A stretch of 64,000 nucleotides of DNA from Candidatus Buchananbacteria bacterium (GCA_041665005.1 JBAYJR010000004.1:20669-84668), one strand, 5' to 3'. Shown: positions 2,172 to 60,248, counted from the stretch's first letter. The notes: a model not told the origin generated them from the letters alone. Program-made: numbers and translations.

Positions 2172-3590
2172 TTATTTTAATTTCTTAATATTTTTTAAAA
2201 ACTGCTGACCGCGATCAAATTCATTTTTAAACAAGCCAAAAGAGGCACAGGCTGGTGATAATAAAATTACCCCTCCCCGCTTAGCCTTTAGCCAAGCCAG
2301 CTTAACCGCCTCGGACATGCTGCTCACTTCAGCTAAACTGGAATAATTTTTTAAGTCAGCTTTAATTTTTTCCGTGCCCGCACCGGGCAATAATACTAAA
2401 TATTTAACCCGGCGCTTAATTTCTTTAGTTAATCCAGAAAATTCTAGTTTTTTATCAGCCCCCCCAGCAATTAAAATTATTTGCTGGGCAGTTTTGGTTA
2501 AGGCCTGCAAAGCAGCTAAGGTGGCATCTGGCGTCGTCGCCGTAGTGTCATTATAAAAATTTATACCGCGTAAACCTTTTACTAATTCCAACCGATTAGC
2601 TAGGCCCACAAATTTTAAACTTTGCTTGCGAACAATTTTTAAGGGCACTCCAAAAGCCAAAGCGGCCGTAGTGGCAATTAAAACATTTTTAACGTTGTGC
2701 TCACCTAAAACTTTTAATTGCTTAACGCGACAAATTTTTTGCTCTTGACCGAACCGTCTAAAATATAAAACTTGATTTTTAATAAACCCACCATTTTGTT
2801 CGGCAAAATATTTTTGACTAACCCAAAACCTTTGGGCTAAACAACGAATACCCATCGCTTTGGTAAATTTATTATCCAAATCAAACACTGCAATATCTGA
2901 TGGTTGTTGATAGCGCCAAAGATGTTCCTTGGCCGCGGCATATTCTTTAAGATTTTTATAAGTGTTTAAATGATCCGGCAAAATATTAGTAACGATTGCT
3001 AATTGCGGAGATTTTTTAAGATCAGCCAAGCTTTCTGCCATCCAAGAAGAAATTTCTAAAACTACCGGCGTGGTTGGTTTTAAATTTTTTAAGTGCAATA
3101 ATGGCGATTGCCCTAAATTACCCCCCAGTAAACTTTGCGGCTCCCAGGCTTTGATAATTTGGTAAAGTAAAGTAGCGGTAGTGCTTTTACCACGGGTGCC
3201 GGTCACGCCTAAAATTGGCCCGGCATAAAGTTTAATAAATAAACTAATATCGGTATAAATCGGAATTTTATTGGCCCGCGCCAACTTTAAAAAATTTGAA
3301 CTAGCTGGCACTCCCGGGTTGCGAATAATTATTTTAGCCGCGGCAAAATCTTTGGCCCGATGCTTGCCTAAAACAAAAGTTAATTTAGCCAAAGGATGTT
3401 GCTTAGCAAATTTTTGTAATTCCTTAACTGGTTTAGCAAGTTGTTTACTGGTTTTTAAATCGGTTATCAAAACTTTAGCTTGTTGCTCAATAAAAAATTT
3501 GGCCGCGGAAATACCGCTACCTTGTTCGTATAGGCCTAAGCCCATAATTACTACTTTTTGGCCAAAAAAATTGTTGGATTTTTCTACCAT
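2172..3590 (-). CDS. murD: UDP-N-acetylmuramoylalanine--D-glutamate ligase MurD
   Basis: 472 aa with a Mur-ligase P-loop (GVTGTRGKSTTATLL) and an N-terminal Rossmann segment (VVIMGLGLYEQGSG). Its position upstream of ftsW supports the murD call. Confidence 0.85.
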   Translation of the reverse strand: MVEKSNNFFGQKVVIMGLGLYEQGSGISAAKFFIEQQAKVLITDLKTSKQLAKPVKELQKFAKQHPLAKLTFVLGKHRAKDFAAAKIIIRNPGVPASSNFLKLARANKIPIYTDISLFIKLYAGPILGVTGTRGKSTTATLLYQIIKAWEPQSLLGGNLGQSPLLHLKNLKPTTPVVLEISSWMAESLADLKKSPQLAIVTNILPDHLNTYKNLKEYAAAKEHLWRYQQPSDIAVFDLDNKFTKAMGIRCLAQRFWVSQKYFAEQNGGFIKNQVLYFRRFGQEQKICRVKQLKVLGEHNVKNVLIATTAALAFGVPLKIVRKQSLKFVGLANRLELVKGLRGINFYNDTTATTPDATLAALQALTKTAQQIILIAGGADKKLEFSGLTKEIKRRVKYLVLLPGAGTEKIKADLKNYSSLAEVSSMSEAVKLAWLKAKRGGVILLSPACASFGLFKNEFDRGQQFLKNIKKLK

Positions 3591-3672: not shown

Positions 3673-4737
3673 TCAAAGAATACTCACCAAAAAACGGCCA
3701 GCCTTGCTGGAATTGGGATTGCCCGGAGCGCCCTGAATCAAGTCGACCTGCGCAAAGTTACGATAGAAATAGACATACGGCACGCAGCCAAGTTTTTTTA
3801 AACAACTGCTAAGCAGATAACAAGCCTTGCTCGAACCTTGATAACCATCAATCACTTGGTTGGTTTGGGTTAAGTGGCTTAAGGCATAAATTAACCATGA
3901 TTCTGGGGTTAGACCTTGTTCACCTTTATACTGAGGGTCGGTTTGGAGTTGTTTAAGATAGTTATTGGGTGATTGGTTAGCTTCTGGTTGCTGGCGATGA
4001 GCGATGATTTTACCTTGGCCTTCGGGTGGAAGGTCGGGTAGGTCTTCAAGTAACAGGACTTGCCAGGCTTGGGTGGGTAAAAGTTCTTGTTTGGTTTTAC
4101 CTTGGTGATCAGTTTTGGAATATTCTTGGGGGAAATATGCTAAATCTCCTGTGGCTTCAGCTTCTACCAATCCAGCATCATCAAAAATAAACTTTGTGCC
4201 AATCTCTTTATTAAGCCCTAAGGGTTGATTTTGGGTATCTCGGAGCTCACCTCGCTGATGATGTTCTATTAGAGCCCTGTCATAAGCCTCTATTAGAGAA
4301 CCTATTGGTAAACCAAAAGGAACAAGGATTAGTTTAACAAAGCCTTGTTTAATTTTAGTTTCAAAAAACTTACGTTTTTCTAGCATTATTTCTTCAATCT
4401 GTTCTAGGGTGGGTATGGGGTATTCTTGCTTATCAATTGCTTCAATACCTAATTTGCCAGTGGAGAGGGTTTTTAGGAGGTTGTTTTTACGGAGAATGTC
4501 TACTTGGGCTTCATACTGGGCTTTAAGGTTTTCTGGGGTTAGTTCGGGGGTGTTGAGCCAGAGTTGGTCTTGGAGTTCTTGGAGGGTTTGTTCTAATTTA
4601 GTTTTAGCTTCTCTGATAAAGATAAGATCGTCTGACTTTCCTGTTTGCGGTAAACCGGCTAATTCTTGATTGAATGTTTGTTTTAGTTGTTTAAGAGACT
4701 CTAGTTCAAGGGTAAGTCTTTGACAGGATTGAGGCAT
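3673..4737 (-). CDS. Hypothetical protein, paralog family member 1: conserved N-terminal coiled-coil module plus C-terminal domain 'A'
   Basis: 354-aa ORF with a canonical ATG. N-terminus MPQSCQRLTLELESLKQLKQTFNQEL...; C-terminal ~290 aa are ~70-75% identical to ORFs 6049..7107 and 51558..52631 (shared LGIEAIDKQEYPIPTLEQI, ELLPTQAWQVLLLEDLPDLP, YLKQLQTDPQYKGEQGLTPESW). No signal peptide and no recognisable catalytic motif. Confidence 0.6.
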   Translation of the reverse strand: MPQSCQRLTLELESLKQLKQTFNQELAGLPQTGKSDDLIFIREAKTKLEQTLQELQDQLWLNTPELTPENLKAQYEAQVDILRKNNLLKTLSTGKLGIEAIDKQEYPIPTLEQIEEIMLEKRKFFETKIKQGFVKLILVPFGLPIGSLIEAYDRALIEHHQRGELRDTQNQPLGLNKEIGTKFIFDDAGLVEAEATGDLAYFPQEYSKTDHQGKTKQELLPTQAWQVLLLEDLPDLPPEGQGKIIAHRQQPEANQSPNNYLKQLQTDPQYKGEQGLTPESWLIYALSHLTQTNQVIDGYQGSSKACYLLSSCLKKLGCVPYVYFYRNFAQVDLIQGAPGNPNSSKAGRFLVSIL

Positions 4738-4762
4738 AAAATATTTTTAAAAAATATTATAC

Positions 4763-6037
4763 TTAAATCTGTTTATTTATTTCTAAATACTTAACAAAAG
4801 TTTTAAAATCAACCGGAAGATCTTGGGCTAATCTATCTAAAGGACTTTTGTCTGCAAAAAGACCCTTTCTGCTTGCTATTTTTTCAAATATTTCATTTCT
4901 AAAGCCCCAAGCCTGAGGAGAATCTAAACCAGCTAAACTTCTAACCAAGCCAAAAAATATATCAGTATTTATGGTTGAATTTTCAGTAGTGGCTAAGATT
5001 AGATTTCTTAAATTCCACGCCTCTGGGGAGTCTAATCCCGCCAAACTTTTGGCAAGCTCTTTATTATAATTTGTATTTAATAAATTCCTTCGCCACTCCC
5101 AAGCTTGCTCAGAATCCAAGCCGGTTAAACTTTCAATAGTATTAATTATATTTGCTCCTCCTACTGTTAAACCCAACTTTTTTCTAAACTCCCAAGCTCT
5201 GGCAGAGTCTAAACCGGCCAAACTGGACATAAGTTTGTTACTACGACTAATCTTATTTTGTTTTGTCGTAGCTTTTAAAATATCTCCCCTAAACTCCCAG
5301 GCGGCCGGAGAATCCAAACCTTTTACACTCTCAATTATACGATCCAAATCTACTTGCTGGTCAAATAATTCTGCTCTAAATTCCCAGGCGGCCGGAGAAT
5401 CCAAACCGACCAAGCTAAGGACTAACTCGGGTATATTTTCCTTTTGCTTTAACAATTTTTTTCGCCACTCCCAAGCCTGAGGAGAATCTAAACCATCTAA
5501 ACTACGAGCAATATAACCATTAGTTAATTCGTCCGACAACTTTTCTCGCCACTCCCAAGCTCTGGCAGAATCCAAGCCAGTCAAGCTAGTTGCTATAAAG
5601 CCTTTTCTTCCTACCTGGGCTAAAAGATTTTCTCGCCATTCCCAAGCTTTAGGAGAATCCAAACCAGTTAAACTGATTTCCAAACAACCTTCGGCTACTT
5701 TTTGTGCTAATAACCTTTCTCTTAATTTCCAAGCCGAATCGGAATCAAAATATTTTAATCCCAAGGCAATAAAATTTTGATCAAAATTTTCGGCTAAAAG
5801 TTGCTCGTAATATTCAAGACAATGTTGTTCAAATTCGGCATAAATAAATTCCGGCATTGACCGCTCAATTTTTTTTAAAGCAAATTTAAAATCTTCTTTA
5901 ATTTTCCTAAGCAAAGCTAAGTCCTCGGACTTTTTGGAGTCTAGATCTTTAATTTTAGTTAATTCCAAATCAAACTGTTGTTTAAGCGTTTTAAGGGATT
6001 CTAGTTTGGTAGTAAGTTCTGGGCAAAGTTGGGGCAT
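4763..6037 (-). CDS. Hypothetical protein, paralog family member 2: same N-terminal module fused to ten tandem ~30-aa helical repeats (motif sLxGLDSPxAWEWRxxLL)
   Basis: 424-aa ORF. The first ~35 codons are near-identical at the DNA level to the 5' end of ORF 6049..7107. The remainder is ten tandem repeats (GLDSPKAWEWRENLL, GLDSARAWEWREKL, GLDSPQAWEWRKKLL, GLDSPAAWEFRAEL, ...) resembling TPR/HEAT-like alpha-solenoid units. Confidence 0.6.
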   Translation of the reverse strand: MPQLCPELTTKLESLKTLKQQFDLELTKIKDLDSKKSEDLALLRKIKEDFKFALKKIERSMPEFIYAEFEQHCLEYYEQLLAENFDQNFIALGLKYFDSDSAWKLRERLLAQKVAEGCLEISLTGLDSPKAWEWRENLLAQVGRKGFIATSLTGLDSARAWEWREKLSDELTNGYIARSLDGLDSPQAWEWRKKLLKQKENIPELVLSLVGLDSPAAWEFRAELFDQQVDLDRIIESVKGLDSPAAWEFRGDILKATTKQNKISRSNKLMSSLAGLDSARAWEFRKKLGLTVGGANIINTIESLTGLDSEQAWEWRRNLLNTNYNKELAKSLAGLDSPEAWNLRNLILATTENSTINTDIFFGLVRSLAGLDSPQAWGFRNEIFEKIASRKGLFADKSPLDRLAQDLPVDFKTFVKYLEINKQI

Positions 6038-6048
6038 AAATATTTTAT

Positions 6049-7107
6049 TTAAGAAATACTTACTGCAAACCGGCCGGTACCGTCAGAACCGGAATCGTCC
6101 GGATCATACTGAACCAAGTAGACCCGAGCACGGCCACGGCCGAAGCCGGCGAACGGCACGCTGCCAAATTCTTTAAAACAACTACTAAGTAAATAACAAG
6201 CCTTACCCGAACCCTGATAATTATCAATCACTTGGCTAGTTTGTTCTAAATGACTTAGGGCATAAACTAGCCAGGATTCCGGGGTTAAACCTTGTTCACC
6301 TTTATATTGAGGGTCAGTTTGGAGTTGTTTAAGATAGCTATTGGGTGATTGGTTAGCTTCTGGTTGCTGACGTTTAGCTATGATTTTACCTTGACCTTCA
6401 GCTGGAAGGTCGGGTGAGTCTTCAAGTAGTAGGACTTGCCAGGCTTGGGTGGGTAGAAGTTCCTGTTTGGTTTTACCTTGATGAGTAGTTTTGGAGTATT
6501 CTTGGGGAAAATATACCAAGTCTCCTTTTTCATCAGCCTTTGCGTATTCAACCAAGTCATTAATAGGTTCTCCCTTAAGCTCTAAGGGTTTATTTTGGGT
6601 GTCCAAAAGTTTGCCTTGCTGGTGGTGTTCGGTTAGGGCATCGCCATAGGCCTCTTTCAGAGAGCTAATTGGTAAGCCAAAGGGAACAAGAACTAGCTTG
6701 ACAAAACCTTGATTGATTTTGGTTTTAAAGAATTCTGGTTTTTCTAGAATTGTTTCTTTAATCTGTTCTAGGGTGGGTATGGGATATTCCTGCTTATCAA
6801 TTGCTTCAATGCCTAGTTCACCAGTGGTGAGGGTTTTTAGGAGGTTGTTTTTACGGAGGAGGTCTACTTGGGCTTCGTACTGAGTTTTAAGGCTTTCTTG
6901 AGCTAGTTCAAGAGTTTCTATCCATATTTTGTTTTGAAAGTCTTGGAGGGTTTGGTTTAGTTTGGATTTTATATTTCTGATGAAAATAAGATCGTCTGAC
7001 TTTTTGGAATCGAGATTTTTAATTTTAGTAAATTCCAAATCAAACTGTTGTTTAAGCGTTTTAAGGGATTCTAGTTTGGTAGTAAGTTCGGGGCATTGAG
7101 AATTCAT
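6049..7107 (-). CDS. Hypothetical protein, paralog family member 3 (N-module plus domain 'A')
   Basis: The track ORF 6049..7128 opens with a TTG. The conserved family start MNSQCPELTTKLESLKTLKQQFDLEF... corresponds to the ATG at 7105-7107. The C-terminal domain is homologous to 3673..4737 and 51558..52631. Confidence 0.6.
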   Translation of the reverse strand: MNSQCPELTTKLESLKTLKQQFDLEFTKIKNLDSKKSDDLIFIRNIKSKLNQTLQDFQNKIWIETLELAQESLKTQYEAQVDLLRKNNLLKTLTTGELGIEAIDKQEYPIPTLEQIKETILEKPEFFKTKINQGFVKLVLVPFGLPISSLKEAYGDALTEHHQQGKLLDTQNKPLELKGEPINDLVEYAKADEKGDLVYFPQEYSKTTHQGKTKQELLPTQAWQVLLLEDSPDLPAEGQGKIIAKRQQPEANQSPNSYLKQLQTDPQYKGEQGLTPESWLVYALSHLEQTSQVIDNYQGSGKACYLLSSCFKEFGSVPFAGFGRGRARVYLVQYDPDDSGSDGTGRFAVSIS

Positions 7108-7151
7108 AAAGATAGCAATTAACAACAAAAACTATTAAATCAGTTAACCAA

Positions 7152-8195
7152 CTATATTTTATCCAACAAAAATATAATCAAGCCAATCGCCGCCATTACT
7201 CCGGAGATTACCCAAAACCGCATCACAATTTTTGTTTCCGGCCAACCAATCGCCTCCAAGTGATGGTGGATTGGTGCGGATAAAAAAACTTTTCGCTTAA
7301 ATACCTTTTTAGAAAAGACTTGGATGATTACTGATAAAGATTCAATTACAAACAATAAACCAATAATTGGCAACAACAAAACTTGATTAGTTAACATCGC
7401 CACAATTCCTAAAACCACCCCCAAAGACATTGCCCCAGTATCTCCCAAAAAGAATCTAGCGGGATTAATATTAAACCACAAGAAGGCTAATAGCGCTCCC
7501 GAAATCACCCCGCACAAAGTTGCTAAATCATATTTACCTTGAGCAAAAGCAATAATACCATAAGAAGCAAAAGCGGCCATTAAGGTGCCACCGGCCAAAC
7601 CATCCAAACCATCAATTTCATTGACCGAAAAAGCGGTGGCCACAATTACAAAAATAAACATTGGAAGATACCACCAGCCAATTTCATAATTACCCATAAA
7701 TGGCACATGAATAAAATTCCAACCCAATTTATAATAAAACCAATAAGCTCCTACGGTCGCAATTAAAGTGTAAGTTAACAAACGGGCCTTAACGCTTAAA
7801 CCGCCACCCTTAGGGCCCCAGCGCCAAACATTTAATAAATCATCAACTAATCCAACTACCGCCGCGGCCACCAAAGCACCCAAAGGCAACCAGGTTTGAC
7901 TACGACTTAAAAAATTTAAATCCGACCAAAAACCGTCAAAATATTGACTGAGGTAATAAACTGCCAAGGCTAAAACTAAAGTAGTCACCCACACCAACAA
8001 GCCACCCATCGTCGGCGTGCCGGATTTTTTTTGATGAATGGCCGACATAATCGGCGCGGCTTCGGAAGCGCGAATTTGCTTGCCTAGTTTATATTTATAC
8101 AAAAAGTGAGTCAACAGCGGCGTCCACATTACTGCCAACACAAAAGACAAAGTAGTTAAGAAAAAAGTTTTAGCAATTAACAAATTTAAACTCAT
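7152..8195 (-). CDS. mraY: Phospho-N-acetylmuramoyl-pentapeptide transferase MraY
   Basis: 347-aa polytopic membrane protein carrying the MraY/WecA signature (VNEIDGLDGLAGG) and the conserved C-terminal HHHLE motif (SAPIHHHLE). Confidence 0.9.
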   Translation of the reverse strand: MSLNLLIAKTFFLTTLSFVLAVMWTPLLTHFLYKYKLGKQIRASEAAPIMSAIHQKKSGTPTMGGLLVWVTTLVLALAVYYLSQYFDGFWSDLNFLSRSQTWLPLGALVAAAVVGLVDDLLNVWRWGPKGGGLSVKARLLTYTLIATVGAYWFYYKLGWNFIHVPFMGNYEIGWWYLPMFIFVIVATAFSVNEIDGLDGLAGGTLMAAFASYGIIAFAQGKYDLATLCGVISGALLAFLWFNINPARFFLGDTGAMSLGVVLGIVAMLTNQVLLLPIIGLLFVIESLSVIIQVFSKKVFKRKVFLSAPIHHHLEAIGWPETKIVMRFWVISGVMAAIGLIIFLLDKI

Positions 8196-30281: not shown

Positions 30282-30331
30282 ATCTAGTAATTTTTCTGCT
30301 TTTTGGTAAATTGAAACGCCAATATTATTCA

Positions 30332-30610
30332 CAGAAAGCCTGGGGGTTTGGGGGAACCAATTGAACCCCAGGGATTACTTATAAAAATAAACAAATTATC
30401 AGCTAGTAGCGTGCCAGCCCTAGGCTGGTCCGCCTTGGGCGGAAATTTGTGCCCCCAAAACTTTTGCCTGCCCCGCATGGCGGTGGGTCCTTTTGGTTAC
30501 AAAAGGACAAGAATATTAAGGATGACATTCTACTGAAATTTAATCACTTTGAGAGTAAAAGTGACAACACAAATTAATCTGGATTCTGGGCCAAGCCCGG
30601 AATGACAAAA
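30332..30610. repeat. Structured GC-rich intergenic repeat element, copy 1 (putative ncRNA or MITE-like element)
   Basis: About 280 nt sharing conserved blocks with 53974..54312: ...AAACAAAyTATCAGCTAGTAGmGyGCCAGCCCyAGGCTGGTCCGCCtGGGGCGGAAATTTGT... at the 5' side and ...AGTGACAACmyAAATTAATCTGGATTCyGGGyCAAGCCCGGAATGACAAA at the 3' side. It contains a tandem double hairpin at 30414-30443 and a long-range pairing TTTGGGGG / CCCCCAAA. Confidence 0.6.
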
Positions 30611-30617
30611 ATAAATA

Positions 30618-32192
30618 CTATTTCACCATCCCCTGACTTCTCTTTAACCGATGAAAACTGATCGCAAAACGATGAGCTTCGTCGCGAAGGCGTTGCACTA
30701 ATTTTAAGGCTGGTGATTTTTTATTTAATTTAACCGGATATTGCGAACCAAAAGTATAAAGTTCTTCTTCTCGCTTAGCTAGCGCCACCACCGGCAAAGC
30801 CAAACCTAAATCACGCATGACTTGCAAGGCTGCGGATAATTGCGGCCGGCCACCATCTACCATCAGTAAATCTGGCAAAGGTTTTTTTTCGGCCAACAAC
30901 CGGCTGTAACGACGATAAATTATTTCTTTCATCATGGCAAAATCATTTTGCCCGGTCACCGTTTGAATAATAAAGTGCCGATAATTATTTTTATCCGGCC
31001 GGCCGGCCTTAAAATTAACCATCGAACCAACGGCGTTAGTTCCTTGAATTTGCGAAATATCAAAACATTCAATCACTTCTGGCAAACGCGGCAATTGCAA
31101 AGCATTTTGTAATTCTAGTAAAGCCGGCTCCCCTAATTGCGCGGAAATTAAAATATTCTTTTTTACTAATTCCAACAAGGCCAACTTATCCCCCTTTTCC
31201 GGCACAATTATTTTTACTTTTTTCTGCGCCAACTGACTTAAATACTCGGCAATCAATTCTTGTTCAATCAACATTTGTGGCACAATTACTTCACTAGGAA
31301 TTTCTTGTTGAAAATAATATTGCTTAATAAATTCACTAAATTTTTCTAAAGCCAACTCTTTGGTGGCAGTTAAACGATACTCCCGGCGGCCGGAAACTAG
31401 CCCATGAAGCACGTTAAACAATTGAATTACTAATTCCGGGCCAATGACTTGATAATTAATAACATCCTGATTGTAACCTTTAGGTAAAGAGACACGCTGT
31501 TTTTCTGCTAAATTGGTCAGCGTCAAAATTTGGTCGCGACGAATTTTAGCACTTTCATAATTTTGTTGCTGAGAAAAAATTTTCATCTCACGCCGAAGTT
31601 CTCTAATTAATTCCGGAGTTTGTCCTTTTAATAAACTTTCGGCCTTTTTAACATTAGTCTGGTAATCAACGGCACTAATCTGGCCAATACAAGGCGCCGA
31701 GCATTGCTTAATATGATAAAGTAAACAGGCAATTTTAGGTAAACGTTTACAAACACGCAACTTAAATAAGGTATTAGCCAAATAAATTGCCTGACGCCGA
31801 GTTTCACCCGAGACGAAAGGTCCAAAAACTTTTTCCGTGGTTTTAAATTCGCGCACACTAACTAGACGCGGAAATTTATCCTCAGTAATTTTAATATAGG
31901 CATAACGCTGTCCTTCTTTTAATAAAATATTATAAGGTGGCTGATGATCGCGAATTAACTTGGCTTCCATAATCAACGCTTCCACTTCGGTATTAGTCAA
32001 GAAAAAATCAAAATCCGCCACTAACCTGACCAAAGCTCGCGTTTTGGGATCGTGATCTTTTTTTTGCCAGTACGAAGACACGCGCTTGCGTAAATTCTTA
32101 GCCTTACCAACATAAACAATCTTACCTTTTTTGTTTTTAAAAAGGTAACAACCGGGGCCATTGGGAATAATTTTTAATTTATTGCTCAACAT
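30618..32192 (-). CDS. uvrC: Excinuclease ABC subunit C
   Basis: N-terminal GIY-YIG (GCYLFKNKKGKIVYVGKAKNLRKRVSSY), a UvrC central domain and C-terminal RNaseH-like/HhH regions. Confidence 0.9.
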   Translation of the reverse strand: MLSNKLKIIPNGPGCYLFKNKKGKIVYVGKAKNLRKRVSSYWQKKDHDPKTRALVRLVADFDFFLTNTEVEALIMEAKLIRDHQPPYNILLKEGQRYAYIKITEDKFPRLVSVREFKTTEKVFGPFVSGETRRQAIYLANTLFKLRVCKRLPKIACLLYHIKQCSAPCIGQISAVDYQTNVKKAESLLKGQTPELIRELRREMKIFSQQQNYESAKIRRDQILTLTNLAEKQRVSLPKGYNQDVINYQVIGPELVIQLFNVLHGLVSGRREYRLTATKELALEKFSEFIKQYYFQQEIPSEVIVPQMLIEQELIAEYLSQLAQKKVKIIVPEKGDKLALLELVKKNILISAQLGEPALLELQNALQLPRLPEVIECFDISQIQGTNAVGSMVNFKAGRPDKNNYRHFIIQTVTGQNDFAMMKEIIYRRYSRLLAEKKPLPDLLMVDGGRPQLSAALQVMRDLGLALPVVALAKREEELYTFGSQYPVKLNKKSPALKLVQRLRDEAHRFAISFHRLKRSQGMVK

Positions 32193-53973: not shown

Positions 53974-54312
53974 GTCAGAAGCACCCTGGGTCTGGGTGAC
54001 AATTGAGCGTCAAGGATTAAGAATGAAAAACAAACAAACTATCAGCTAGTAGAGCGCCAGCCCCAGGCTGGTCCGCCTGGGGCGGAAATTTGTCACCCAG
54101 CAGTTTTGGATACTTCCTGCCTGCCGGCAGGCAGGTTGCTGCCAAAAGTATCAAGAAATAATAAGGAGGGTGTTCTGCTGAGAAGTAGTCACTTCGGGAG
54201 TAATAGTGACAACCTAAATTAATCTGGATTCCGGGTCAAGCCCGGAATGACAAAGGGATTGGATCCTGAATCCGCCGCCGATGGCGGGGCAAGCAAACCA
54301 GGAATGACAAAT
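53974..54312. repeat. Structured GC-rich intergenic repeat element, copy 2
   Basis: Homologous to 30332..30610 at both ends. Double hairpin at 54057-54086; long-range pairing CTGGGTGACAAAT (53988-54000 region) with ATTTGTCACCCAG (54086-54100); an internal perfect palindrome CCTGCCTGCCGGCAGGCAGG; a ~55-nt internal duplication of the GGAATGACAAA end. Confidence 0.6.
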
Positions 54313-55872: not shown

Positions 55873-56655
55873 TTAATAAAATTTCTTATTATAGTAGGTT
55901 AGTTTTAACCTACCATTTTCTCCATGTTGTGGCATTCCAGAATACAGGGTAACTCCACAATTACAGGGTTTGTAGTTACGATCGAGTTCCATAAACTCTT
56001 TTTCCGACAACCGTTCCAAATTGGCTCTAATGCCCAAAATGGATAAATGATGAGTAATAACCAAAACTTTTTTGCTGTGGTAGTCCCGCACTAAAGAATT
56101 GATCCATGACCGTAAACGATCACGTAGCATCGGCACATTTTCGCCTTGAGGATAAGTGTACCAATATAATCCCTGCCTCTCATTCAGTAATCTCTGCTCG
56201 GGATGAAGCGTCTGAAAAACGCGCCAGTCATTATACAGAGAGCTGATCCCGTGGTCCTGCTCTCTAATACGCTCTTCTTCAAAAGTCTTAACATTAGCTA
56301 ACTCCGGCCAACCCGCTACTAAGCCTTTAAAAGTTTGGCGGGTTCTTAAATAGGGTGAACAGAATATCACCTCTGGTAGGTCAAACTTTTCTTTTAAGGC
56401 CACGCCAACAGTTTTGGCGTTTTTACTTTCAACATCTACTAACGAAGTGTTAGCATCGCTAACCTCTAAGGCATATTTGCGAGCTATCACCCTGGCTAAC
56501 TCTACAGTCGCCAAGCTTTCTGGTTCGGTTTCAAAGGCCTTAATAAACTGCTGATAAGTTGGATCTTTAGCCTTTTGATGTTTCAGAACATTATGTTCTG
56601 AAACATCATGACGAATCAAGACCAGCCACTGCGGCCATTTCATATATTTCTCCAT
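55873..56655 (-). CDS. Histidine-phosphatase superfamily protein (branch 1-like, divergent)
   Basis: Catalytic-like WLVLIRHDVSEHN and LVITHHLSILGIRA. Divergent RHD instead of RHG. Confidence 0.45.
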   Translation of the reverse strand: MEKYMKWPQWLVLIRHDVSEHNVLKHQKAKDPTYQQFIKAFETEPESLATVELARVIARKYALEVSDANTSLVDVESKNAKTVGVALKEKFDLPEVIFCSPYLRTRQTFKGLVAGWPELANVKTFEEERIREQDHGISSLYNDWRVFQTLHPEQRLLNERQGLYWYTYPQGENVPMLRDRLRSWINSLVRDYHSKKVLVITHHLSILGIRANLERLSEKEFMELDRNYKPCNCGVTLYSGMPQHGENGRLKLTYYNKKFY

Positions 56656-56769: not shown

Positions 56770-56844
56770 TGGCTCTGCGAGCTGGACTCGAACCAGCAAC
56801 CTACCGGTTAACAGCCGGTTGCTCTACCATTGAGCTATCGCAGA
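56770..56844 (-). tRNA. tRNA-Asn (anticodon GTT), CCA encoded
   Basis: Manual fold: acceptor TCTGCGA/TCGCAGA, D-arm GCTC-AATGGTA-GAGC, anticodon arm ACCGG-CTGTTAA-CCGGT (GUU), T-arm GCTGG-TTCGAGT-CCAGC, discriminator G, CCA. Confidence 0.85.
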
Positions 56845-56967
56845 ACCAAAAAGCTTATCTTAAATTTTAAACAATCATCTTAAACAACGTACCTACCATT
56901 GCCAGCCCAAGGCTGGTCGGCCTCGGGCCGAAGCTATCGCAGAACCAAAAAGCTTATCTTAAATTTT
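56833..56967. repeat. Tandem ~97-bp duplication of the tRNA-Asn 5' end plus upstream flank, with a 30-nt GC-rich double-hairpin inserted in the D-loop of the fragment copy
   Basis: AGCTATCGCAGAACCAAAAAGCTTATCTTAAATTTTA occurs at 56833-56869 and 56931-56967. Between them CCAGCCCAAGGCTGGTCGGCCTCGGGCCGA (56902-56931) interrupts ...CAATGGTAG / GATAGCT of a tRNA 5'-fragment copy. Confidence 0.6.
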
Positions 56968-57007
56968 ACTCCCTGTATAATAACGAATTTTTTAAAAATC
57001 GTCAAGG

Positions 57008-58267
57008 TTAATAGTCTCTTAACTTTTCAATGCCTTTAAATTTTTCAATTTTTTCCAAGGCTTTGGCCTCAATTTGCCGAATCCGTTCGCGAGTGACGTC
57101 AAATTCTTTACCCACTTCCTCTAAAGTGTGCGAAACCCCATCCAATAAGCCAAACCGCATTTCTAGCACCTTTTGTTCCCGCGGCGTAAGCTCGCGAATT
57201 ACTTCTTTAACGTAATCACGCAACAATTGCAAAGCCGCCACTCGGTCCGGAGTTACGGTTTTAACATCCTCAATAAAGTCTTCCAAAGTGCTATCATCAT
57301 CGTCTTCACCAACCGAAGTACCCAAAGAAATAGTTTCTTGAGAAATTTTAATAATGTGATTGATTTTTTCTATATCTTCATTCATTTCCGAAGCAATTTC
57401 TTCGGGCAAAGGTTCGCGACCCAAATCTTGAATTAACTGCCGTTCAATCTGTTGAAATTTATTAATATTTTCTACCATATGCACCGGAATACGAATCGTC
57501 CGTGACTGATCAGCCAAACTGCGCGTAATTGCCTGCCTAATCCACCAAGTAGCATAAGTAGAAAATTTATAGCCCCGACGATAATCAAATTTTTCGACCG
57601 CCCGAAACAAACCGATATTACCTTCTTGAATCAGATCTAACAAGCTTAAACTTTTACCTACAAATTTTTTGGCGATTGAAACCACTAACCGTAAATTGGC
57701 CTCAATTAATTTATGGCGAGCCTCTTGATCCCCTCGCTCAATCCTTTTGGCTAACACCGTTTCTTCTTCCGAAGCCAATAATGGCACTTTGCCAATTTCG
57801 CGTAAATACATTTGAATTGAATCATCAGAAATTTCACCCAAATCTAACGGGGATTTTTCACGAAAGGCCACTTTGGCCAAAATTTCTTCCCGCGTTTTAC
57901 TGGTCAACAAAACGCCGCCCGGTTCAACAATGGAAACGCTGTTAAGCTGTAGCTTGTCTAAAAAATCTTCGTATAGTTCTAAATATTCCTCCACTTCGGC
58001 AAAAACCTTCATTACTTCTATCTCAGTCAAAAAACCGCGCGACCGGCCTTTGCGCAACAATTCTTTCAATTCTATTTCAGTTGGTTTAATAACTGGTAAA
58101 ACTACTTCCTTTTTAATTTTAACCTCGGCCTTAGACTTAGATTTTTTAAATCTAATTTTAGCCTTAGGTATTTTTTTTACCTTGGCAAATTTTTTAGCCT
58201 TAACTGATTTTTTAACTTTGAAAAGTTTTTTAAACTTTTTAATAATTTTAGATTTGGCTTTAGCCAT
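57008..58267 (-). CDS. rpoD: RNA polymerase sigma factor RpoD (sigma-70) with Lys-rich N-terminal tail
   Basis: Regions 2-4: [40 protein letters not shown], and region 4.2 [24 protein letters not shown]. Confidence 0.9.
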
Positions 58268-58268
58268 A

Positions 58269-60248
58269 TTAAGAAAGTAAAAGTAATTGTTCCGTTAAAC
58301 TATTAAATTCTTGCAATAGTTGGTTGGTACTTTCGCCTTTGTTTTCCAACTGTTGAATTAGACCAGTTAGCTCCTGTAGCCGAAAATGCAAAAATCCTTG
58401 TTTAATCAATTTGACGGTTTGTTTTAATTCTTCTTTAATTTCTTTGGCCGAAAAGTTTATTAAATCCCTTTCCGCCAATAATAAAAGCGCCCCGACTTGG
58501 GTCGTCATCTGCGTTTGTAACTCTTTGGTAAGGTATGAAGAATTGGCCAAGATCTCTTGTTTAAAGGCCTCGCTGTCAAAAATTAGCGGGCCGCTGGCCA
58601 AAGATGCATTATTATTTCTATTTTTAGTATAATAGATTATTAAGCTTTTGTAAAGCTCCTGCCAAAACTTATCTAATAAGATTTCGGGCGATAAATTATT
58701 AATCAAATACTCCTGATATTCCGGAAATTTAAACGCAATCATTAGGGCTCGTTCAGCCAAAATGGCAATTCGAGTTTTTACTAATGGCTGAAAAGGCTTG
58801 ACCGTTTTGTCATCTTTAGGCCTAACCGTCGCTTTAGCACCCGGTAAAATTTCCCGCAAAATATTTTCTGAAACATTTAGAGTTTCGGCTAATCTTTTTA
58901 ACCAATGTTCGCGTTCCAAAGGATTACCAAGCTTGGCAATTATCGCCAACAAAGTTTTGGCGATTTGTTTTTTGACCTGCGGAGAATTTAAATCCGCCCC
59001 CACCACATTTTTTTCCCAATAATACTGCATAATTTCTTTGGCTTCCTGCACCGCTTTAAGCCAAGCGCTGGCGGAAGTTTTGATGCACTCATCCGGATCC
59101 TTGCCAAATGGCAAAATAATTACCTTAACATCCGCTTCTTGCTGTAAGGCTAAATCAATCCCCCGCCGCGCGGCGGTCTCTCCGGCCAAATCCGCATCTA
59201 AAGCAATAATTAAATTATTAGTATAACGTTTTAAAATTTTTATTTGCTCAGTGGTTAAGGCGGTACCCGAAACTGCCACCACATTTTTGGTACCCGCCTG
59301 CCAAGCGGCAATTACATCCATATAACCTTCCACCAACACTACCGAATCAAGTTTTTTAATTTCTAGTTTAGCTTTATCCAAATTAAATAAAATCGCGCTT
59401 TTGTTATAAAGATCGGTTTGGGGAGTGTTCATATATTTAGCCGAGCTTTTGCTCTGCCCGGTCGGATCCCACAATCGTCCGCCAAACCCGACCACGTTAC
59501 CGTGTAAATCATTAATCGGAAACATTACCCGACTACGAAAGCGATCATAAAAACCCACTCCCCGATCCTGTTTAACGGTTAAGCCGGCCAAAAAAAGTTC
59601 TGATTCGCTAAAACCTTTTTTCTTTAAAAAATTTTGCAATAAATCTGAGCTATCTGGAGCAAAGCCTAATTGGAATTCTTCAATGGTCTGATTGGTTAAA
59701 CGTCGCTCCTTAATTAAATAATCTAAAACTGATTTGGCCGAGGCTGATTCCCATAAAATCTTTTGCCAAAATCTAGCCGTTAAATCTCCAACATCCAGTA
59801 AGCGATTTCTTTGACTGGTGGAAGCAGAGTCAAAACTGGCCAATTTTACTCCCGCCTTATTAGCTAAAATTTTTAAAGCTTCCGGAAATTCAATATTTTC
59901 CATTTTCATGACAAAAGAAAAAATATCGCCACCTTCGCCACAGCCAAAACAATGCCAAATTTGCTTTTCGGTAGAGACCATAAAACTAGGCGTCTTTTCC
60001 TGATGAAATGGACACGGCGCTTTAAAGTTAGTGCCCGCCGGATTTAGGCGGATATATTCCTGCACTACTTCCAAAATGTCTAGTTTTGATTTAATTTCGT
60101 CAACTGATGATAAGGCCATAAAATTCAAGACTTGGCTGATCAACTTAATAAAAAATACCATCAGCCAATCCTGCCTATACTCTACTGAAAAAAACGAGTT
60201 TTGTCTACTTATCCAGCCTTCGACTGACCGGCTAAAAATGGCTGACAA
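58269..60248 (-). CDS. dnaG: DNA primase DnaG
   Basis: Zn-ribbon [30 protein letters not shown] and a TOPRIM region (VLVEGYMDV...DADLAGE). The track start is a TTG; the likely true start is the internal ATG giving [19 protein letters not shown] (near 60118-60120). Confidence 0.85.

Follow-up and report, generated by a model that had tools for sequence, protein, structure and literature searches.

The tRNA-Asn locus

A stretch of 64,000 nt (GCA_041665005.1, JBAYJR010000004.1:20669-84668; hereafter the window) from a metagenome-assembled genome (MAG) of Candidatus Buchananbacteria carries an intact, functional tRNA-Asn(GTT) gene at 56770-56844 on the minus strand (ARAGORN; Rfam RF00005, 74.9 bits) and, upstream of it, a truncated copy of the same gene that is split by a 30-nt double-hairpin insert, here called the module. 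The tRNA gene is the last of a string consisting of dnaG (58269-60248), rpoD (57008-58267) and tRNA-Asn, and is followed by a histidine-phosphatase gene. Among the ultra-small bacteria of the candidate phyla radiation (CPR, Patescibacteria) the module is a dispersed and structured insertion that is translated in genes, enriched at tRNA loops and coupled to small SLX1-like GIY-YIG nuclease genes. We consider it probable that the copy in the window belongs to a tRNA-targeting hairpin/GIY-YIG cassette without its open reading frame (ORF), and that the module is a small mobile DNA element.

In the orientation of the tRNA, the 163 nt that separate tRNA-Asn from the rpoD stop codon contain a promoter-like site, a segment B, the 30-nt insert, a segment A', a spacer S and a second copy of B, followed by nt 13-75 of the intact tRNA-Asn. 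The two copies of B (outer, 56932-56968; inner, 56833-56869; both on the minus strand) are a direct repeat of 37 nt with 100 % identity, made up of 25 nt of 5' leader and tRNA nt 1-12 (56845-56869 and 56833-56844 in the inner copy). When the sequence was read beyond the insert, tRNA nt 13-21 of the intact gene (ctaccattg; segment A, CAATGGTAG, 56824-56832, minus strand) were found again in the fragment as A' (56893-56901, minus strand), with 9/9 nt identical and the next base different. As this 9-nt repeat adds to the 37-nt repeat, the duplicated unit is 46 nt long (25-nt leader plus tRNA nt 1-21) and has a period of 99 nt. An earlier note, which a model made from this sequence alone, had seen that the 5' end of tRNA-Asn is duplicated upstream, and both repeats bear this out. 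It gave the first 37-nt copy correctly, placed the second one base off, and divided the unit into about 24 nt of tRNA and 22 nt of flank, where the true split is 21 nt and 25 nt.

The insert has a length of exactly 30 nt (56902-56931, no strand assigned: CCAGCCCAAGGCTGG TCGGCCTCGGGCCGA), as the earlier note had it; it is not strictly in the D-loop, where that note had put it, and splits the fragment between tRNA nt 12 and 13, the last pair of the 5' strand of the D-stem. Comparison of the repeats gave neither a target duplication nor a boundary ambiguity for the insert. The arrangement can be written as an ancestral promoter-leader-tRNA gene with a 99-nt block (module-A'-S-B) placed exactly at its nt 12|13 junction. 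The hairpin-bearing copy is the one still joined to the promoter-like site: the outer B, with the leader and nt 1-12 of the dead fragment, lies directly downstream of that site and keeps the ancestral promoter-side flank, and the second leader with nt 1-21 rebuilds a functional tRNA-Asn 31 nt downstream. The site itself is a predicted sigma-70-like promoter just after the rpoD stop (TTGACG-17-TATTAT; 56977-57005, minus strand; 10/12 matches in a consensus scan), and its predicted transcription start at about 56970 is 2 nt before the outer repeat.

Spacer S (56870-56892, 23 nt, minus strand) is unique, as no second copy was found in the window at up to 3 mismatches, and it has no similarity to the rest of the tRNA (p=0.36). 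Since S is not repeated after the second copy, a simple tandem duplication, which is how the earlier note had described the arrangement, was rejected. By contrast, the spacer at a tRNA-Lys gene of another genome (locus L103) resembles a decayed anticodon arm (p=0.007), so that spacer origins may differ between loci.

In a relative whose RpoD is 73 % identical (L121), dnaG and rpoD are followed by 73 nt and tRNA-Asn, and both fragment and hairpin are absent, which makes the 99-nt unit a derived gain. The rpoD-tRNA-Asn synteny is kept in L121 and lost in the other two of the three relatives compared (L120 and L122). An assembly artefact would be conceivable in that the source is a MAG contig; we find it scarcely credible, because a read pair is longer than the 99-nt unit and the architecture recurs in dozens of assemblies that were made independently in different studies, one of them from a single cell.

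Fold and distribution of the module and the GIY-YIG cassette

Each hairpin of the module has a 6-bp G+C stem and a 3-nt loop, CNA in the first and TNG in the second. At tRNA-Asn the two hairpins are CCAGCC-CAA-GGCTGG (56902-56916) and TCGGCC-TCG-GGCCGA (56917-56931), with 12/12 stem pairs. For the covariation analysis, modules were taken from loci chosen by protein and not by hairpin sequence, in order to avoid circularity, which gave 40 distinct 30-mers. Across these, 99.8 % of the cells are paired, a percentage inflated by the selection of 30-mers with at least 11/12 Watson-Crick pairs; the covariation is not inflated in this way. In the two-hairpin fold, 9/12 pairs change on both sides and there are 78 compensatory cells, a number reached in 0/500 shuffles. 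The stems observed were CCAGCC/GGCTGG, TCAGCC/GGCTGA, TCGGCC/GGCCGA, TCCGCC/GGCGGA, TGGGCC/GGCCCA, CCCGCC/GGCGGG, TGCGCC/GGCGCA, TCATCC/GGATGA, CCGACC/GGTCGG and CCCTCC/GGAGGG; the constant parts are the inner GCC/GGC pairs and the loops. The single long hairpin that RNAfold prefers was rejected, as covariation does not support it. The module is pseudo-symmetric, in that its reverse complement is again hairpin(CNA)-hairpin(TNG), and its orientation is thus defined only by which stem comes first. The numbers of G-U and C-A cells (4 vs 1) do not tell DNA from RNA.

There are exactly three copies of the module in the 64 kb (56902-56931, 30414-30443 and 54057-54086; 0 expected in 100 shuffles), and the window holds no double hairpins beyond these. 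In the latter two copies, stem 2 is TCCGCC/GGCGGA as against TCGGCC/GGCCGA at tRNA-Asn. The C-G to G-C flip that the earlier note reported relative to the two large elements is thus real, and is one case of the general stem-pairing rule.

When one genome per species was scanned with the pattern CCAGCCNNNGGCTGGTCNGCCNNGGGCNGA, the module was found in at least 119 contigs. Nearly all of them are labelled Patescibacteria, one being a single-cell genome, and a few third-party annotation (TPA) bins are labelled otherwise. The lineages include Parcubacteria, Moranbacteria, Saccharibacteria, Berkelbacteria, Falkowbacteria, Magasanikbacteria, Giovannonibacteria, Nealsonbacteria, Staskawiczbacteria, Wolfebacteria and Portnoybacteria. 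Carriage by phages was rejected, as the strict pattern had 0 matches in 2.9 million viral contigs.

Among the matches listed, 86/129 copies lie in long open frames, and 55 of these 86 coding copies share one of the six frames, TCC GCC CAA GGC GGA CCA GCC TCG GGC TGG, which reads SAQGGPASGW (p=1e-22). This strong frame bias indicates that the module is translated and not spliced. The copies in genes are true insertions: in CPR MiaA, an 11-residue insert (SARGGPALGWK) falls exactly at a gap of the solved MiaA structures, and of two trigger factors that are 60 %-identical orthologs, the one in L076 has three 10-aa inserts derived from the module and the one in L114 has one. The module was also found in ValRS (three loci) and in DnaJ (11 loci). 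The glycine/phenylalanine-rich linker of DnaJ is a hot spot, with differing positions in 11 genomes (L031, L033, L044, L053, L057, L065, L083, L116, L117, L018 and L023) and two copies in L083.

The module has a flank preference, TTT^SA. In the TCCGCC-first orientation and among the same listed matches, T occupies positions -3, -2 and -1 in 85/129, 115/129 and 92/129 copies, respectively, G or C prevails at position +1, where T is rare, and position +2 is A in 85/129. Direct repeats of 5-8 nt flank 23-31 % of the copies, compared with 3-8 % in the null. Intergenic copies often lie within genome-specific tandem repeats of 7-8 nt, e.g. AAAATTG [module] AAAATTG AAAATTG (L011, L029, L034, L074, L086, L098, L099, L109 and L068), and pairs of modules in tandem, 7-8 nt apart, were observed in L070 and L089.

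In the fetched loci, 14/126 copies (11 %) are no more than 150 nt from a tRNA, compared with 3.3 % of the bases (3.4-fold, p=7e-5). A tRNA fragment with the hairpin was found elsewhere at tRNA Lys, Glu, Pro, Met, Leu, Ser, Tyr and Cys, and the complete B-module-A'-S-B-A topology at Lys, Glu, Pro, Met and Leu. In all tRNA cases but one (L041), it is a truncated copy of the neighbouring tRNA that holds the module. The insertion site is in the D-arm in the window (Asn), L103 (Lys), L090 (Glu), and L012 and L047 (Ser), and L103 has the identical nt 12|13 site and orientation as the window. It is in the anticodon loop in L072 (Glu, two tandem 104-nt units) and in the T-loop in L010 (Met), L112 (Leu), L025 (Pro), L017, L113 and L042/L092. 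When the module lies in the 5' part of the tRNA, the fragment is upstream of the intact tRNA; when it lies in the 3' part, the fragment is mostly downstream. On one side of the module the tRNA homology extends as far as the tRNA end, on the other it covers only 4-20 nt, and no target duplication was found at the tRNA-site insertions. The outer boundary of the duplicated tRNA piece is the mature tRNA end, with the discriminator or CCA in the 3'-type cases (L010, L112, L025 and L092); an RNA-templated step, or a donor-recipient homology limited to the tRNA, could account for this.

When the module was deleted in silico, a complete tRNA was restored for 1/129 copies. This is L041 (approximately 3489-3560, minus strand), where deletion gives a 76-nt tRNA-like gene called as Leu-CAG, with the module after nt 56 in the T-loop and an imperfect T-stem. 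The locus could be a pseudogene, or else a rare case of an insertion that is tolerated or processed. Were the module an intron-like intervening sequence that is removed from RNA, the tRNAs and mRNAs bearing it would be functional, and both the precise 30-nt insertion without target duplication and the restored gene of L041 fit such a view. We nevertheless regard it as close to negligible. Only 1 of about 20 tRNA-associated copies lies in a complete gene, and that one has an imperfect T-stem; the others are in truncated copies beside an intact one, unlike tRNA introns of the bulge-helix-bulge or group I type, which split an otherwise complete and sole functional gene, and the strong frame bias shows that the module is translated.

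The arrangement also invites comparison with tyrosine-integrase islands, which Williams is said to have described in 2002 as targeting tRNA genes. As in such islands, a direct repeat of the tRNA end flanks a short insert, the tRNA is regenerated and the junctions are in loop-coding regions; the anticodon-loop and T-loop positions of the module resemble integrase crossover sites. The fragment could then be an attL/attR-type scar of an integrase-driven element that was once in tRNA-Asn and has been nearly all deleted, the hairpin being unrelated filler. This is very improbable in our judgement, because a Pfam search of eight neighbouring ORFs gave no integrase or transposase (the neighbours are dnaG, rpoD, histidine phosphatase and dUTPase), the inserts are only 23 nt to about 0.4 kb long and the cassettes of about 0.4 kb found elsewhere have a GIY-YIG ORF only, the modal site is at D-arm nt 12-14 of the 5' end, and the hairpin is inside the repeat, so that the displaced fragment is itself split and has tRNA sequence on both sides.

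In seven loci (L006, L036, L047, L054, L061, L064 and L092) the place of spacer S is taken by an ORF of 79-94 aa starting MYYVYILKS. The GIY-YIG catalytic domain PF01541 was found in 12/12 such ORFs (best E-value 7e-17) and covers them end to end; among solved proteins, they are closest to BH0048 and EF2693, both of UPF0213, and to SLX1, a structure-specific endonuclease. Of the GIY-YIG ORFs in module-selected loci, 7-8/12 abut a module, and in L006 there are modules on both sides of the ORF.

A second sample of 80 metagenomic loci was selected by protein, using two peptide patterns of the GIY-YIG protein derived from a five-sequence alignment. In 59 of the 65 loci with enough flank there is a tRNA no more than 250 nt away, in every case on the same strand. 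Most of these are tRNA-Ser at 4-45 nt downstream, and Tyr, Cys, Asn and Glu also occur. A two-hairpin 30-mer (at least 11/12 pairs) lies 7-38 nt before the ATG in 47/80 loci, and at least 16 of those 47 match the strict module pattern. The cassette hairpin is preceded on its left by the 5' end of the downstream tRNA and followed on its right by a few more tRNA nucleotides. Among 27 non-redundant cassettes, the module follows tRNA nt 12-14 in 15 (the modal site) and nt 35-38 in five, and in 15/27 5'-type cassettes, all from loci L123-L202, the repeat ends at tRNA nt 1 (+0 or +1). The copy in the window matches these cassettes in site, in topology and in module type (TCGGCC first and CCAGCC second, as in L130 and L134).

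The hairpin and the tRNA piece vary between cassettes. In L175 and L177, tRNA-Asn(GTT) has a GIY-YIG cassette at nt 11/12 with a different palindrome, CCTGCCTGCCGGCAGGCAGG, and L120 and L007 have still other double hairpins. In L133, L127 and L144 the upstream fragment differs from the adjacent tRNA, which suggests import with the cassette and not local duplication. GIY-YIG genes downstream of an intact tRNA have a different hairpin pair (ACGCTNAGCGT type) in the equivalent place. In this second arrangement (L176, L194, L201, L190, L179 and L202) the gene is 45-116 nt downstream of the intact tRNA, with hairpins CAACGCTNAGCGTTG and GGGACGCTNAGCGTCCC between them, and no tRNA fragment was detected in the six loci.

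The position of the hairpin before the ATG raises the question of a functional RNA, i.e. a double stem-loop in a 5' leader or 5' untranslated region that stabilises or times the processing of the tRNA-Asn precursor and, elsewhere, of GIY-YIG mRNA from a tRNA co-transcript. At tRNA-Asn the module is downstream of the promoter-like site and within the predicted leader, a region that folds well (z = -4.05); in the cassettes there is the spacing of 7-38 nt to the ATG, and other double hairpins occupy the equivalent place in genes after intact tRNAs. Still, we hold this explanation to be quite unlikely, since the 30 nt are in frame in dozens of unrelated proteins and in both orientations, the G-U and C-A counts give no strand-specific signal, no Rfam match was obtained (a search of the whole window at gathering thresholds found no family besides two tRNAs), and the duplicated tRNA piece is left unexplained.

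A more serious alternative, although an unlikely one, is a stand-alone selfish palindrome like the repetitive extragenic palindromes (REP) or the Rickettsia palindromic elements (RPE), without a functional tie to GIY-YIG genes. The tRNA duplications would then be by-products of hairpin-induced stalling, slippage or illegitimate end joining, visible only where a lethal insertion was rescued, and the GIY-YIG genes would merely share a preference for tRNA-adjacent sites. Most copies (the 86/129 in open frames) are indeed solo 30-nt inserts far from GIY-YIG genes, the window is without such a gene, the short flank repeats and the 7-8-nt tandem repeats at intergenic copies suggest slippage, and among the tRNA cases the ORF-less ones (about 11) are about as many as the ORF-bearing ones (about 8). 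On the other side, the hairpin is 7-38 nt before the ATG in 47/80 loci and occupies the tRNA positions of the ORF-less cases, a regularity beyond coincidence, and spacer S is not templated from the adjacent flank, contrary to simple slippage.

Other elements in the window and its relatives

The second and third copies of the module, obtained by pattern match and without an assigned strand, lie at equivalent internal positions of two homologous non-coding elements of about 290 nt, E1 (30330-30625; module at 30414-30443) and E2 (53975-54300; module at 54057-54086). The alignment of E1 and E2 gives a long-range helix that encloses the module and shows covariation between the two elements (UUUGGGGG/CCCCCAAA in E1, CUGGGUGACAA/UUGUCACCCAG in E2), and the fold z-scores are -3.6 and -4.2, respectively. 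E-value searches of Rfam with E1 and E2 gave chance-level matches only. When a profile of E1/E2 was run against 119 other CPR loci, only the 30-nt module was matched and the flanks were absent; E1/E2 are therefore not the parent of the module elsewhere.

E2 also contains a perfect 20-nt palindrome, CCTGCCTGCCGGCAGGCAGG, at 54116-54135, which was found as well in L175 (1463-1482), L177 (870-889) and L094 (two copies). As the same palindrome is the tRNA-splitting hairpin of L175 and L177, such modules come in more than one type in this genome. Both E1 and E2 end in a third type of hairpin, CTGGATTCYGGGNCAAGCCCGGAATGACA (30577-30612 and 54222-54300), and a related unit follows in E2. The exact pattern of this type is absent from the 202 fetched loci; in L105 the module sits in the loop of a similar GTCATTCCCGC...GCGGGAATCCAG hairpin.

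Close to tRNA-Asn, the 5' part of the downstream histidine-phosphatase ORF has a perfect 16-nt inverted repeat with a 1-nt gap (56576-56608; TGATGTTTCAGAACAT A ATGTTCTGAAACATCA), and a 77 % similar copy of it is in dnaG (58851-58876). Three direct repeats spaced 18 nt (TTTTAGCCTTAGGTATTT...) are at the 5' end of the rpoD ORF (58156-58227), presumably in the repetitive lysine/alanine-rich N-terminal region of the sigma factor. Downstream of rpoD in L122, a relative among the Buchananbacteria, lie RNase HII and a cluster for a LigD-type ligase/primase-polymerase (4347-7260), which is repair of the non-homologous end joining type and bears on whether filler-containing end joining is available to these bacteria.

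Interpretation and related systems

According to the reading that we favour, the tRNA-Asn fragment is the ORF-less form of a tRNA-targeting hairpin/GIY-YIG cassette, an apparently undescribed and widespread selfish cassette of CPR bacteria. The insertion of the module would be precise and would favour TTT^(G/C)A, with targets in protein genes, in intergenic DNA and in those parts of tRNA genes that encode loops. A cassette would be composed of an outer flank, the tRNA end up to a loop, the module, 4-16 more tRNA nucleotides, a part X and the intact tRNA, where X is usually the SLX1/UPF0213-type GIY-YIG gene of about 85 aa and would be the 23-nt spacer in the window. Nuclease and hairpin may be an enzyme-substrate pair, like the REP-associated tyrosine transposase (RAYT) and REP. 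The structure-specific nuclease would act on extruded hairpins or on tRNA-gene loops, and repair of the break by copying would spread module and cassette in a homing-like manner. Insertions in a single-copy tRNA gene would survive only if the product regenerates the intact gene, and the copy in the window would have lost its ORF or never had one.

Several points weigh against this reading. There is no GIY-YIG ORF in the 64-kb window, and spacer S has no detectable relic of a GIY-YIG ORF start (p=0.87), so that ORF loss is assumed and the ORF-less form could be the primary product. The reading offers no source for spacer S or for the regenerated B copy, and the nearest RpoD relatives (72-77 % identical) are too distant for a true empty-site comparison. 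The flank repeats at 23-31 % of the copies fit poorly with a single clean insertion mode. A protein of 85 aa with a catalytic domain only has no obvious route to the recognition of a specific sequence, and we know of no nuclease activity, cleavage site or transposition intermediate. Finally, the role of the double hairpin between tRNA sequence and ATG could lie with the mRNA, e.g. as a 5' stabiliser, and not in mobility.

RNase P discards the 5' leader of tRNA precursors, and the fragment in the window is probably an inert extra 5' leader of the tRNA-Asn precursor that is removed in this way. The analysis of the locus gave no evidence for a function of the fragment itself, and nothing supports the tRNA-derived regulatory RNA that the earlier note had listed among its options. 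Of the other options listed there, a mobile-element footprint or REP-like palindrome comes closest, and an integration or excision scar is disfavoured as no integrase is nearby. The same note would have counted a ubiquitous motif with no tRNA association against itself; the module is ubiquitous across CPR bacteria and mostly in protein genes, yet its tie to tRNA-associated rearrangements, which the note had claimed, holds (11 % vs 3.3 % within 150 nt), and fragment duplications like those it had proposed as a check recur at the eight other tRNA types named above. Its interpretation is thus partly supported and was incomplete, as it lacked the link to small GIY-YIG genes.

RPEs are elements of about 100-150 nt that occur in Rickettsia in-frame in protein genes, and were reportedly described by Ogata et al. 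in 2000. Like the module, they are short palindromes without a transposase, dispersed in a reduced genome, in-frame in many unrelated protein genes and also in intergenic or RNA-gene DNA, and with one frame predominating (55/86 coding copies in the case of the module). The module differs in its length (30 nt, two 15-nt hairpins), in its occurrence across the CPR superphylum and not in one genus, and in its association with partial tRNA duplications and a GIY-YIG gene; its sequence is not known to resemble that of RPEs. Rickettsia palindromic elements are mentioned in PMC1166351 and PMC1458961.

REP sequences, the bacterial interspersed mosaic elements (BIME) and RAYT share with the module the short G+C-rich hairpin repeat in many copies, an imperfect palindrome of 20-40 nt, the stem pairing kept by covariation and the small nuclease-type gene flanked by or adjacent to repeats (as in L006). 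In contrast, the gene of the module is of the GIY-YIG (SLX1/UPF0213) type and not a Y1 HUH transposase, two thirds of the module copies (the 86/129) are intragenic whereas REPs are extragenic, and the flanks are TTT^SA with no GTAG head. When 0.92 Mb were searched with Y1/RAYT probes, one ORF matched, 3 kb from any module.

In phage T4, SegB is a free-standing GIY-YIG gene in a tRNA gene cluster (PMC2330249). The Seg genes and the cassette have in common a small GIY-YIG gene among or next to tRNA genes, multiple and variably present copies, and a presumed spread by cleavage and repair with co-conversion of flanks. The CPR proteins, however, are about 85 aa long, consist of the catalytic domain without the C-terminal DNA-binding domain that gives homing endonucleases of the Seg/Mob type their site specificity, and have their nearest solved relatives in UPF0213 and SLX1; their genes are cellular and not of phages (again, the strict pattern was absent from the viral contigs), and Seg genes are without the duplicated tRNA piece and hairpin module. 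The module and its cassette therefore resemble RPEs in insertion, REP-RAYT in the gene relation and SegB in the cassette, yet depart from each in its defining features. Searches of the literature, including a literal-sequence search, found no description of the module or of tRNA/GIY-YIG cassettes in CPR bacteria, although their coverage was incomplete and this is no proof of novelty.

A bolder proposal, possible but in our estimate doubtful, is that the 30-nt hairpin and the SLX1-like GIY-YIG protein of about 85 aa are a new class of nuclease-driven mobile system in CPR bacteria. The nuclease, although free of a DNA-binding domain, would recognise the extruded double hairpin or cloverleaf-like tRNA-gene DNA, repair would copy the module into TT^SA sites genome-wide, in-frame sites in essential proteins among them, and the system would park its own gene behind tRNA promoters with the tRNA regenerated. 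The boundaries at tRNA nt 1 (15/27), at the CCA end in 3'-type cases and at the predicted start in the window would allow for an RNA-templated repair step.

The locus in the window is by itself probably a modest, inert footprint whose value is as a lead to the family. Pseudo-tRNA fragments and 10-aa inserts will confuse the annotation of tRNAs and proteins in CPR MAGs, and the module is a compact taxonomic marker for CPR DNA. CPR bacteria have tiny, streamlined genomes that had been regarded as repeat-poor. If the interpretation is true, a single 30-nt element has spread a 10-residue peptide through essential genes of a whole superphylum (e.g. those of DnaJ, MiaA, ValRS and trigger factor) and repeatedly remodels single-copy tRNA loci, and the uncharacterised UPF0213/SLX1-like GIY-YIG proteins of bacteria would gain a candidate for their natural substrate and biological role.

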